From sequence record PQ847473.1: DNA of 42,960 nt; one strand, 5' to 3'. The notes under the pieces were generated by a model, which was given only the letters and a program-made list of their open reading frames with translations, was not told the DNA's origin and made no database searches. Made by a program: the position numbers and the translations under genes. Positions 37,197 to 40,445 of this stretch are shown here, piece by piece. Source of the DNA: Escherichia phage vB_EcoP_P64441. Position 1 is the first letter of the stretch. Each line of letters starts with the position of its first letter.

Positions 37197-40100
37197 TTAC
37201 TCCTTATTATGTGCCAGCGATTTTACCTGCTCCTTTAGACGGGCAAGCTCTCTACGCTGGTACAGCATCTCAATGAAGAACATCTGGTCAGGTCGAATAC
37301 CCCAACGACTTCCTGCAGGAGTAATTACACTTACATTACCTTCCTCGTCATGTTCCACCATCTCAGGGTACTCATCGTGGCACAGGAACCCGTACTTACA
37401 TGAAGTAGCATCAGGCTCCATAAGTCCGTGCGTAACGAGCACGTCACGCACCTGCTGTGCTATTACACCAAAGTGAGTACGAGCAGCGTCCCCTTTAGTA
37501 GCTAGACTGTCAAGCCACTTAAAGCTAATGATGTGTACATCCGCCCAAGCATCTAACAGTGCCGATTCCACTTCCTCCGGGGCTGTTTTAAGAGTACCGT
37601 CAGAAGTATTGATAGTGCCTGTAACAGCATACACCGTACTCCATCTATTAGACGCGCCCCCTAATGCTACAGAGGAGTCGTTATAAGGTAGCAGGTTGTT
37701 TTGAGTGTAGACACCTCCCGTTGCGTACAGGACTGCCCTATTAGGCGTACTGTGATTAGATCCATAGAGTTGCACAATAGCGCCAGAGGCAGCGGAGTTA
37801 CCTGACCCCCCGCTCAGAATAAGCCGTTGCTGTGCTGGGTTACCAGTAGGCACTGACTTGTAAATCTGACCGTAATCCCCGTCCAGAAGTACTTCAGACC
37901 GTACAGCAGGGATTCCGTTATGCCCAGTACCTGTAACACGTAAGGAGTTAACCTCTACGCTCTCATCAAAGACCATAGGCGCTGAAACATGGCGTAACCC
38001 GTCTACCCCCATGGACACAGGTACAGTACGGTTAGGTGCTGCCCCGTATTTAAAGTCGCGAGACACATGCTGCTGCGGACCTACCTTAATACGGTAGCTG
38101 TACAGGTCAGTAGGATGACCATCCTGCACGTACCAGCGCTTAGCAGAGTTACCTCCAATGGACCACGGGGATAAGAAATCCTCTCCGCCGAACAGATAGT
38201 ACAGCCACCCATCCTTAACGCATACAGAACCTACCCCTACTGAGGAGTTAACTATGTTACCCTGATAAATCTGGTCGGTAACATTAAACCACTGCACCTC
38301 ATCTAATGAGCTAGGCCAGTTACGGACGTTAACCTTGCACATAAAGGTGCGTGCGTAATTACCGTTGTAACGGTTATCAGGGGTATCCGCTTCCCACTCG
38401 TTTGCAGCCCGCTCGCTTGAGAAGATATACAACTCGTCCCCCACCTTAGCAAAAGGTAGGTTACTGTGATGTACCTTGTTAGGGAAACGTAAGTACTCCC
38501 AAGTCAAGCCTGAGTTAGTACTACGTGCCAAGGTAGAACCTGCGGAGGTGGCGGATGTTCCCCGAGTAGTAAGATACAACTCCCCGTCGTAATAGCGTAT
38601 GCAAGGTTCGGAGGCATCGTTCGCGTACTCCTGAGACACTGTACGACGTTCAAATACTCCGGGATTGTTGTACACATCAGGGAAGTACAGAATACCTAAA
38701 CGTCTAGGAGAGACGTCACCGTTATGATAACCTACTGCAACTGCGTTACCTTCAAGGGCGGTAAAGCTATGGGTTTCAGTTACAGCTAAGTCAGCGTTAG
38801 TAGAGTATGCGATTCCCGGCAGTAAGGTCACTTCCCACTGGCAGTCCCAGAAACGTGTACCAAAGCTCCAAGTAACCCCGGCGTTGGTCAACGTTGAGGC
38901 AGCTGCGTTAGTTAAAGGTACTGTAATAGTATTAGCGTCAACTACGGTACGTACTACAGTATTACCTGAAACACCCGTAACCCCAGAGTTCGAGAAGTTA
39001 ATAGTATCTCCTACCTTAAGCCCATGCATAGGAAGTACTACAGTAGCGAAGTTATCCCCAGCCACTGTGCTGATACCCCCAGTAGGCCTACGAGCATACG
39101 GCATTGGGCGCGACCACATCTCCGCCCGTACCCTCCTAGCGTCAGATAGATTACGGGTCTCTACTAGCATGTACAAGCGGTTATTAGAAACACCCATGCT
39201 CATACAATGGTAGTTAACACCTGAGGCATAGTTAGGGTGGATAGGAGTAAGCCATTCTGGCATCGTCCACGTCTGACCATCGTCACCTGAACGTACCCAT
39301 GCTACATGCAGGTTCTGTACGCCATGCCGTTCACCTGCCATGAATGGTGCGTATATTACATTATCATATACGAAAGACTTATCCTGAGTCCACGCATTGT
39401 AGAACGGGGTGTCTGTAATCTTAGTAAGACCTGCTTCGAAATAACCCTCCGATACATAAGTAAGAGGCTGACCCGCTAAGCGCTCATACTTAAACGCGGC
39501 ATTGCGGAAGCGGCTGAGGTCAGGTAAGGCAGTTACTTTAAAAGTTAAACCTTTACCGTCTATGTACTGATTAGGGGCCGCTGCTGCCAGCATGGCTTGA
39601 AGTGCTGCCGTATCATCCGTAACTGCATCACCTGCTACTCCCCATCCACGTACGTCAAAGGAATCTCTCCAATGAGGGTGGTAATACTCAGGATTAACCT
39701 CAGGCCCGTCTATGCGAGTTAAGGCGTTACTCAGTGCAGCTAAACTCTCAGTAGTAGCATAACCTCCTTCCAGAACATCCTCACCTAGTCGCATGAATAC
39801 GTGAGTACCTGCGGGAACAGGGTCGGCTAGTATTACTGTATTGTCCCTAATGGTGTAACTGTACCCCGGAGTTTGACACACCCCGTTAATGTACACTGCT
39901 GCCTTTGTGAAGTTAAGGGCAATTCGGAACTCTTTAGTAGGTTCAGTAGTGTTGAAGTACATAGGGTAGCTGGAGGTAACACCGTTAAATGCACCTTCGA
40001 TGTTATCTACCCTGGTACTCACCTCATCCAGCTGTGACTTATTAACTGCATCCGTAGCGTCCTTACCTGCTGCCAGATTAATGATGCGGAAGCCGTTCAT

Positions 40101-40445
40101 GTTGATAGTACCAAAGAAACCTTCGATACTGCGACCTTCTACCAGTTCCTGAGCTAAGTGCAGGAACTGGGTATTCTGAGTGTCTAAGTTCTCCTTAATA
40201 AAGGCAGCGCCTTCTGAGAACATGATGTAAAGAAACTCTTTAGCAGTGCGACGTACAATCAGTACAGTGCTCTCTGCATCGAGAGGCTTGTCAAAGCGGA
40301 TGCGCGTATCACTGTCCCAAGTAAAATCAAATACCTCTTCACGGTTCACGTACAAGTAAATGTAGGAACGGTCGAGATAGTTGATCTCTACTGGGACAGT
40401 CTGTGCACCAGCTGGTAGAATTTGTTCTTGCCAGCTATAGGCCAT
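37197..40445 (-). CDS. Tail fibre / tailspike 1: T7 gp17-like N-terminal anchor, depolymerase-like domain with Asp-box motifs, C-terminal intramolecular chaperone domain
   Basis: The N-terminal roughly 140 aa has gp17 anchor-domain character ('GFRIINLAAGKDATDAVNKSQLDEV' versus T7 'RRIVNLANAVDDRDAVPFGQLKTM'). 'GVAGDAVTDDTAALQAML' is a depolymerase N-terminal motif. Asp-boxes 'SGDDGQTW' (aa 386-393) and 'STNSGLTW' (aa 642-649). C-terminal 'TSDGTLKTAPEEV...ISFKW' resembles the endosialidase chaperone cleavage region (SDxxLK). Confidence 0.8.
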   Translation of the reverse strand: MAYSWQEQILPAGAQTVPVEINYLDRSYIYLYVNREEVFDFTWDSDTRIRFDKPLDAESTVLIVRRTAKEFLYIMFSEGAAFIKENLDTQNTQFLHLAQELVEGRSIEGFFGTINMNGFRIINLAAGKDATDAVNKSQLDEVSTRVDNIEGAFNGVTSSYPMYFNTTEPTKEFRIALNFTKAAVYINGVCQTPGYSYTIRDNTVILADPVPAGTHVFMRLGEDVLEGGYATTESLAALSNALTRIDGPEVNPEYYHPHWRDSFDVRGWGVAGDAVTDDTAALQAMLAAAAPNQYIDGKGLTFKVTALPDLSRFRNAAFKYERLAGQPLTYVSEGYFEAGLTKITDTPFYNAWTQDKSFVYDNVIYAPFMAGERHGVQNLHVAWVRSGDDGQTWTMPEWLTPIHPNYASGVNYHCMSMGVSNNRLYMLVETRNLSDARRVRAEMWSRPMPYARRPTGGISTVAGDNFATVVLPMHGLKVGDTINFSNSGVTGVSGNTVVRTVVDANTITVPLTNAAASTLTNAGVTWSFGTRFWDCQWEVTLLPGIAYSTNADLAVTETHSFTALEGNAVAVGYHNGDVSPRRLGILYFPDVYNNPGVFERRTVSQEYANDASEPCIRYYDGELYLTTRGTSATSAGSTLARSTNSGLTWEYLRFPNKVHHSNLPFAKVGDELYIFSSERAANEWEADTPDNRYNGNYARTFMCKVNVRNWPSSLDEVQWFNVTDQIYQGNIVNSSVGVGSVCVKDGWLYYLFGGEDFLSPWSIGGNSAKRWYVQDGHPTDLYSYRIKVGPQQHVSRDFKYGAAPNRTVPVSMGVDGLRHVSAPMVFDESVEVNSLRVTGTGHNGIPAVRSEVLLDGDYGQIYKSVPTGNPAQQRLILSGGSGNSAASGAIVQLYGSNHSTPNRAVLYATGGVYTQNNLLPYNDSSVALGGASNRWSTVYAVTGTINTSDGTLKTAPEEVESALLDAWADVHIISFKWLDSLATKGDAARTHFGVIAQQVRDVLVTHGLMEPDATSCKYGFLCHDEYPEMVEHDEEGNVSVITPAGSRWGIRPDQMFFIEMLYQRRELARLKEQVKSLAHNKE

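Follow-up and report, generated by a model that had tools for sequence, protein, structure and literature searches.

A predicted self-maturing endosialidase tailspike fused to an adaptor-type anchor in a Slopekvirinae podovirus

The tail-spike locus

We analyzed a stretch of 42,960 nucleotides from Escherichia phage vB_EcoP_P64441 (PQ847473.1), hereafter termed the window, in which a minus-strand gene at 37197..40445 (stop codon included) encodes a tail spike of 1082 amino acids (aa), corresponding to a precursor of 119.7 kDa. Its product very probably functions as an active, self-maturing endosialidase tailspike. The open reading frame (ORF) starts with an ATG codon preceded at 8 nt by GGAG and is tightly packed between its neighbors, with 2 nt separating its start from the stop codon of gp16 and 2 nt separating its stop codon from the start of the small-terminase gene. 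Plus-strand ORFs within the gene (e.g., 38884..39213, 109 aa) were also considered and were taken as antisense by-products, as the minus-strand gene is strongly supported.

Counting only matches above the curated Pfam cut-offs, six domains were assigned, namely, Phage_T7_tail, four End_ domains, and Peptidase_S74; all of the following features lie on the minus strand. The protein begins with a T7 gp17-type anchor (40026..40406, aa 14–140; Phage_T7_tail PF03906), which would fix the trimer to the tail, followed by a YadA_stalk-like neck motif at aa 120–159 and the second half of an HRP29-gp44/KP34-type adaptor region (39711..39968, aa 160–245), the presumed docking platform for a second tailspike. 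The N-terminal extension domain of endosialidases (39438..39635, aa 271–336; End_N_terminal PF12218, E 4e-29) precedes the catalytic six-bladed beta-propeller (38082..39431, aa 339–788; End_beta_propel PF12217, E 1e-197), into which a beta-barrel domain is inserted (38853..39101, aa 449–531; End_beta_barrel PF12195, E 2.5e-28). A stalk of the triple beta-helix or tail-spike type (37605..38075, aa 791–947; End_tail_spike PF12219, E 3e-59) ends at Thr947, and the remaining part is a C-terminal intramolecular chaperone of ~15 kDa (37200..37604, aa 948–1082), with Peptidase_S74 (PF13884) at aa 948–1007. The accessory endosialidase domains, i.e., the N-terminal extension, the propeller-inserted beta-barrel, and the tail-spike stalk, thus occur in their canonical order. 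The beta-barrel of endoNF, the endosialidase of phage K1F, is a polysialic-acid-binding module. A full-length AlphaFold2 (AF2) monomer model had a mean predicted local distance difference test score (pLDDT) of 65, with most of the propeller and barrel at 80–94.

A first-pass annotation had quoted several motifs in this product, and all of them were located in the 1082-aa protein. The depolymerase-type motif GDAVTDDTAALQA lies at aa 272–284 within the N-terminal extension domain, and TSDGTLK and ISFKW lie at aa 947–953 and 973–977, respectively. Both quoted Asp-boxes fall in the propeller; the first of them, SGDDGQTW (aa 386–393), strictly fits the SxDxGxTW pattern, and the second, STNSGLTW (aa 642–649), carries Asn for Asp. 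The same alignment column reads SRDIGQTW in K1F and SADLGENW in phage phi92. When the protein was shuffled in 20,000 runs, one strict Asp-box was obtained in 29 runs and two loose boxes in none.

Endosialidase identity and active site

The propeller scored 656.7 bits against End_beta_propel, for which the cut-off is 24. In a sequence search against solved structures, aa 270–947 matched the phi92 endosialidase (4hiz) at E = 0, and endoNF (1v0e/3gvl) was matched at E ~1e-240 (3e-240 for 1v0e). Foldseek on the AF2 model also ranked 4hiz at the top (E 2.5e-72, 68% identity), followed by endoNF, the HRP29 tail, the endoNF chaperone construct 3gw6, and GH33 sialidases. Identity with the solved phi92 enzyme was 64–72%, with 72% in the propeller and 64% over aa 238–1077, and the propeller was ~52–57% identical to that of endoNF. 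The sialidase-type beta-propeller that had been proposed from the Asp-boxes was therefore supported by its Pfam family, by the identity to the phi92 endosialidase, and by the confident propeller in the AF2 model.

Both GH33 and GH58 had been suggested as families to be checked. A generic GH33 exo-sialidase or a pectate-lyase-type depolymerase might be considered, as Asp-boxes and the GDxxTDDTxAxQ motif occur also in GH33 and pectate-lyase-type families and Foldseek returned GH33 matches (NanA and trans-sialidases) at E 1e-9 to 1e-11. However, these matches reached only 10–13% identity and ranked below the endosialidases (52–68% identity, E 1e-63 to 1e-72), the BNR_2 domain reached 16.5 bits, short of its cut-off (31.4) and below the value for End_beta_propel, and a beta-helix lyase domain was not detected in the tail-spike protein. 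The sub-cut-off Pfam score and the low identity ruled out a GH33 exosialidase, and we regard this whole alternative as scarcely credible. Because of the Pfam, solved-structure, and Foldseek results, the protein is predicted to be an endosialidase that has the sialidase fold but is not a GH33 member; that is, of the two suggested families, it would be of the GH58 type. Endosialidase tail spikes correspond to class GH58 in CAZy.

Residues were mapped using an alignment with phi92 gp143 and a K1F-type gp17 (1064 aa, phage PR_Kaz2018, providing the endoNF numbering). In a deep mutational scan of K1F, H350, R549, E581, R596, and R647 were catalytic and intolerant to mutation (PMC12632334). These correspond to H374, R581, E613, R628, and R679 in the tail spike, with all five being identical, and Q330, D331, H527, S528, and N699 (endoNF numbering) are kept as well.

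Maturation site

The C-terminal domain scored 46.3 bits against Peptidase_S74 (cut-off 22), and aa 847–1077 matched 3gw6 at E 3.4e-66 by sequence and at E 1e-11 by Foldseek. These matches support the endosialidase-type chaperone claimed in the first-pass annotation, and the TSDGTLK stretch quoted there coincides with the Thr/Ser...Lys cleavage motif. The scissile bond lies between Thr947 and Ser948, with Lys953 located five residues beyond Ser and with Arg934 and Asp923 located at −14 and −25 from Ser, respectively. All five residues (D923, R934, T947, S948, and K953) were invariant in the alignment with the K1F-type and phi92 proteins, and their spacing was equal to that of Asp1239, Arg1250, Thr1263, Ser1264, and Lys1269 in T5 pb1. 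The phi92 record (mat_peptide) places maturation at the Thr/Ser pair aligned to T947/S948, and the 4hiz chain terminates at the residue aligned to T947. In endoNF, cleavage employs a Ser/Lys dyad, and an Arg of the neighboring chain completes the oxyanion hole only after the triple beta-helix has folded (PMC4690869, PMC3742443). Ser948 and Lys953 are accordingly the predicted catalytic residues for the release of the chaperone, and the predicted products are ~104 and ~15 kDa.

Several observations weigh against an active, self-maturing endosialidase of an E. coli phage. The second of the two Asp-boxes, STNSGLTW (aa 642–649), is degenerate, with Asn replacing Asp, and the earlier claim of two typical boxes held only for the first. 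The residue corresponding to endoNF K585 is replaced by Arg. Moreover, R837/S848/Q853, which we take to be the endoNF stalk site for polysialic acid, correspond to R874/A885/I890, where only the Arg is kept, although phi92 differs at the other two positions as well; the details of polysialic-acid binding may thus differ. The pLDDT of the AF2 monomer was below 50 in the anchor (aa 67–139) and the stalk (aa 790–953), and these trimeric parts therefore gain no independent backing from the model, although such values would be as expected for intertwined parts of a trimer modeled as a monomer. Finally, the host is taken to be E. coli from the nearest relatives alone. The degenerate Asp-box and the changes at K585 and at two of the three stalk positions would suit a binding-only or decayed spike that kept the endosialidase fold for adhesion to polysialic acid but lost catalysis or self-cleavage. 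However, the five catalytic and five cleavage residues are those of active enzymes and are invariant in all three fused proteins, i.e., the present one and its relatives with 98 and 74% identity (clusters P0001 and P0002, respectively; see below), which is the pattern resulting from purifying selection on function. In addition, comparable deviations in the Asp-box and the stalk occur in phi92, whose enzyme is active. Loss of activity or of self-cleavage therefore appears very improbable.

Attachment module and second tailspike

The N-terminal anchor scored 46.2 bits against Phage_T7_tail (cut-off 25.2), in agreement with the T7 gp17-like anchor of the first-pass annotation, and the similarity extended beyond this domain. 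Residues 1–239 matched Gp44 of Shigella phage HRP29 (8es4_G; E 2.9e-85), aa 126–245 matched gp47 of PhiM1 (8vbx_R), aa 1–242 were 48.7% identical to the first receptor-binding protein (RBP) of the KP34-group phage F19, and aa 1–246 were 66% identical to gp17 of E. coli phage vB_EcoP_PAS7 (PAS7). The anchor is thus closest to the first-RBP/adaptor type of Slopekvirinae, reaching ~aa 240. Similarity to endosialidases begins at aa 224–238, which places the chimera junction at ~aa 224–245.

In the model for the KP34 group, the first RBP combines an anchor with a docking region resembling T4gp10 (~aa 186–243); the gene for the second RBP follows the endolysin gene, and its product starts with a hydrophobic heptapeptide, MALxxLV (PMC6872550). 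HRP29 gp44, which has been called a tailspike adapter, and gp52 have been used as a purified tail protein complex; PhiM1 gp47 fibers adapt trimers of the spike protein. In the window, a second RBP of 520 aa is encoded directly after the endolysin gene at 32086..33648 (-), consisting of a right-handed beta-helix tailspike body and the N-terminal peptide MTLVANI. The corresponding N-termini are MALVENI in the relative with 74% identity (L005) and MSLVSLV in the PAS7 O103 tailspike. The fit of MTLVANI to the MALxxLV consensus is loose (M-x-L-V/I-x-x-I/V).

The 520-aa spike gave a weak Beta_helix match and a match to a PHROG ‘tail fiber’ family, and no sequence match in PDB. Over 96% of its length, the body shared 68–82% identity with prophage tailspikes of E. 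coli and Salmonella that are 638 aa long and have a P22 head-binding N-terminus. Isolated phages yielded only matches of ~25% identity, and 5,426 complete E. coli genomes yielded only three distant DNA matches. The target of this spike is probably an O-antigen. The window and L005 differ in their second spikes (520 and 532 aa, respectively): a forced MAFFT alignment gave 25% identity, and BLASTP found no match at E 1e-5.

Because aa 1–240 are homologous to HRP29 gp44, PhiM1 gp47, and the first RBPs of the KP34 group, a branched complex, in which aa ~140–240 of the endosialidase would dock the 520-aa spike through its short N-terminal peptide, is plausible and is slightly favored on balance. 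Given the branch-type peptide and the P22-like body of the second tailspike, the virion probably carries two depolymerases.

Genome context and relatives

An exact 127-bp direct repeat occurs at positions 1–127 and 42834–42960, and the window therefore represents a circular assembly of ~42.8 kb. The gene for the internal virion protein gp16 is split by the window ends into an 818-aa ORF and a fragment at 1..~1400, whereas gp16 is 1256 aa long in L004, the relative with 98% identity. The gene content and order were those of phiKMV/KP34-type Autographiviridae: late RNA polymerase; portal, scaffold, and capsid; tail tubes A and B; internal virion proteins; fiber; TerS and TerL; spanin, holin, and endolysin; and tailspike. 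The nearest isolate was PAS7, to which 68% of the first 25 kb aligned at 78% DNA identity; this phage typifies the proposed genus Cepavirus within Slopekvirinae (PMC11522302). Judging from these data, the window holds an entire circular genome, that of a Slopekvirinae podovirus.

From aa 224–238 onward, the tail spike was 64–65% identical to the endosialidases of the siphoviruses K1G, K1H, JSSK01, and 63D and the myoviruses phi92 and phAPEC8, and its endosialidase part was 55% identical to the K1E/K1-5-like and CUS-3-like enzymes. Whole-length identity to the K1F-type proteins was 44–45%. The protein is thus a chimera of a PAS7-like N-terminus and an endosialidase. A megablast search with the gene as query found no match in 50,697 phage records, and the kinship was seen only at the protein level. 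Only four of these records covered at least 80% of the protein, the three among the matches listed being K1F-type, and no full-length homologue above ~45% identity was present. A scan of IMG/VR with the protein recovered anchor homologues only (aa 1–250, 44–51% identity) and no fused endosialidase, and the exact protein sequence was absent from a collection of 15 billion proteins. In a protein database of 5.8 billion clusters, the full architecture was found in two metagenomic clusters only, namely P0001 (98% identity, ENA) and P0002 (74% identity, Logan).

The fiber gene occupied the same place in the gene order in the P0001 and P0002 relatives as in the window. Compared with the P0002 contig, identity was 74% for the fiber, 48% for gp14, 54% for gp15, 59% for gp16, 77% for endolysin, 87% for TerL, and 91% for TerS. 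Since the gene order is shared and the fiber identity lies within the range of the core genes, the fusion has been inherited within a small clade and is not a one-off assembly chimera.

These relatives also bear on the substrate, which is most likely the polysialic-acid capsule of E. coli K1. The closest characterized catalytic domain is that of phi92 endoN92 (72% propeller identity), and its record states that it cuts both poly-alpha-2,8 and poly-(alpha-2,8/alpha-2,9) polymers and that the host is E. coli K92; furthermore, the stalk positions compared above differ from those of K1F. Because endoN92 cuts both the K1 and the K92 polymer, the natural substrate could be something other than plain K1, such as a K92-type alternating alpha-2,8/alpha-2,9 polymer, an O-acetylated polymer, or a polysialic capsule found in a different genus. 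However, most of the equally close relatives (64–65%: K1G, K1H, JSSK01, and the phAPEC8-type phages) belong to phages that were isolated on K1 or O18:K1 hosts of E. coli, the nearest backbones are those of E. coli phages, and linkage specificity is not readable from sequence. We therefore consider a substrate other than plain K1 unlikely, with the K1 capsule being the preferred candidate.

Some database labels related to these sequences appear doubtful. In NCBI, fragments of the P0002 cluster (198–201 aa) bear the name ‘peptidase S74 / tail fiber domain-containing protein [Acinetobacter baumannii]’. As they come from a 606-bp contig, this label probably reflects contamination or mislabeling rather than an Acinetobacter gene. 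Short records, including OR848265 and OR846985, are labeled ‘Listeria phage LM 4-14-1 / 4-11-1’ and showed ~80% DNA identity to the backbone and 63% protein identity to the fiber anchor; these labels look unreliable.

Other features of the genome were also observed. Two paralogous pentapeptide-repeat proteins are encoded in the early/middle region at 27205–27792 (-) and 20490–21071 (-); their genes coincide with local GC peaks (0.556 and 0.536, respectively) and yield long but spurious ORFs on the antisense strand. Going by position alone, the likely counterpart in PAS7 carries a ‘modular polyketide synthase’ label on the opposite strand. An anti-repressor-like protein of the Ant/KilA-N type is encoded at 28922–29587 (-) in this phage of a strictly lytic type, and the corresponding protein of the 98%-identity relative is longer (272 aa). 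DNA polymerase is present as two overlapping ORFs at 21620–22807 (-; 383 aa) and 22764–23915 (-; 395 aa), and PAS7 likewise has two coding sequences.

Discussion

The tail spike is predicted to be the first, anchored RBP of a Slopekvirinae podovirus and to act as a trimeric endo-alpha-2,8-sialidase. The 119.7 kDa precursor would trimerize with the aid of its C-terminal chaperone. Once the triple beta-helix stalk has folded, the Ser948/Lys953 dyad would cut the Thr947–Ser948 bond, assisted by Arg934 of the neighboring chain and Asp923, and thereby free the chaperone of ~15 kDa. Six mature trimers (~104 kDa per chain) would then be held on the tail by the gp17-type anchor. The propeller site H374/R581/E613/R628/R679 would cut the polysialic-acid capsule (most likely K1) internally, allowing the phage to tunnel to the outer membrane, while the adaptor (~aa 140–240) would probably dock the 520-aa spike via its short N-terminal peptide, resulting in a two-enzyme adsorption apparatus.

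The closest solved relative is the phi92 endosialidase (endoN92, gp143, 4hiz), which shares an insertion of 7–8 residues in the propeller (AYSTNADL) that is not found in K1F, the Thr/Ser...Lys maturation site, and the succession of domains between N-terminal extension and chaperone. However, phi92 is a myovirus, and its 918-aa enzyme has a short unrelated N-terminus without a gp17-type anchor. In this respect, the window protein resembles endoNF (gp17) of K1F, an Autographiviridae podovirus in which a gp17-type anchor is likewise fused directly to the endosialidase and chaperone and the catalytic and cleavage residues are identical to those of the window protein. K1F differs in that it belongs to Studiervirinae (Kayfunavirus) and has a single RBP without the adaptor or branch region; overall identity is 44–48%, and identity in the anchor is 27%. 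The siphoviruses K1G, K1H, JSSK01, and 63D (‘Phage #D’) and the phAPEC8-type myoviruses, which have E. coli K1 hosts, carry catalytic, stalk, and chaperone parts with 64–65% identity but use other N-terminal attachment modules on other virion types.

Conversely, the attachment system is that of KP34 ‘group B’ (Latka et al. 2019), HRP29 (gp44/gp52), and PhiM1 (gp47/gp39), which share the anchor and adaptor, the post-endolysin second RBP, and the gene order. Their first RBPs bear a beta-helix capsule depolymerase, a fiber, or nothing, and an endosialidase was found in none of those compared. Phage K1-5 likewise combines an endosialidase and a second depolymerase (K5 lyase) on a podovirus tail (PMC6872550), but both of its enzymes are mounted on a separate adapter, gp37, whereas the endosialidase in the window is itself fused to the anchor and adaptor.

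Textbook knowledge already covers the enzyme class, the chaperone, and modular transfer from one phage type to another (PMC6872550), and the current understanding of endosialidase action is unchanged. What appears to be new is a distinct endosialidase branch, with ~65% identity to the nearest characterized enzyme, and, within the collections and literature searched, the first endosialidase on a Slopekvirinae backbone, where it is fused to an adaptor-type anchor. In the full-text literature on endosialidases and Slopekvirinae, the titles and abstracts were about Klebsiella or Acinetobacter depolymerases. The fusion adds a further case of the endosialidase-plus-chaperone cassette moving among unrelated tail architectures.

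E. coli K1 is a cause of neonatal meningitis, sepsis, and urinary infections. Endosialidases find use in K1 diagnostics, anti-capsule therapeutics, and the removal of polysialic acid from neural cells; the new branch with ~65% identity widens the sequence diversity for such applications. As a tentative view, the window may represent the first described Slopekvirinae (PAS7/Cepavirus-like) coliphage lineage specialized on polysialic-acid capsules, in which an endosialidase trunk carries an exchangeable tailspike of the O-antigen type. The retention of the endosialidase at 74% identity while the second spike was swapped would fit a constant capsule cutter combined with a variable second specificity. 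Such a variable specificity, possibly for the O-antigen, would, if true, suit the differing O-types of K1 strains. The likely pairing of the endosialidase with an exchangeable tailspike would provide a simple natural model of how podoviruses combine capsule and lipopolysaccharide specificities.

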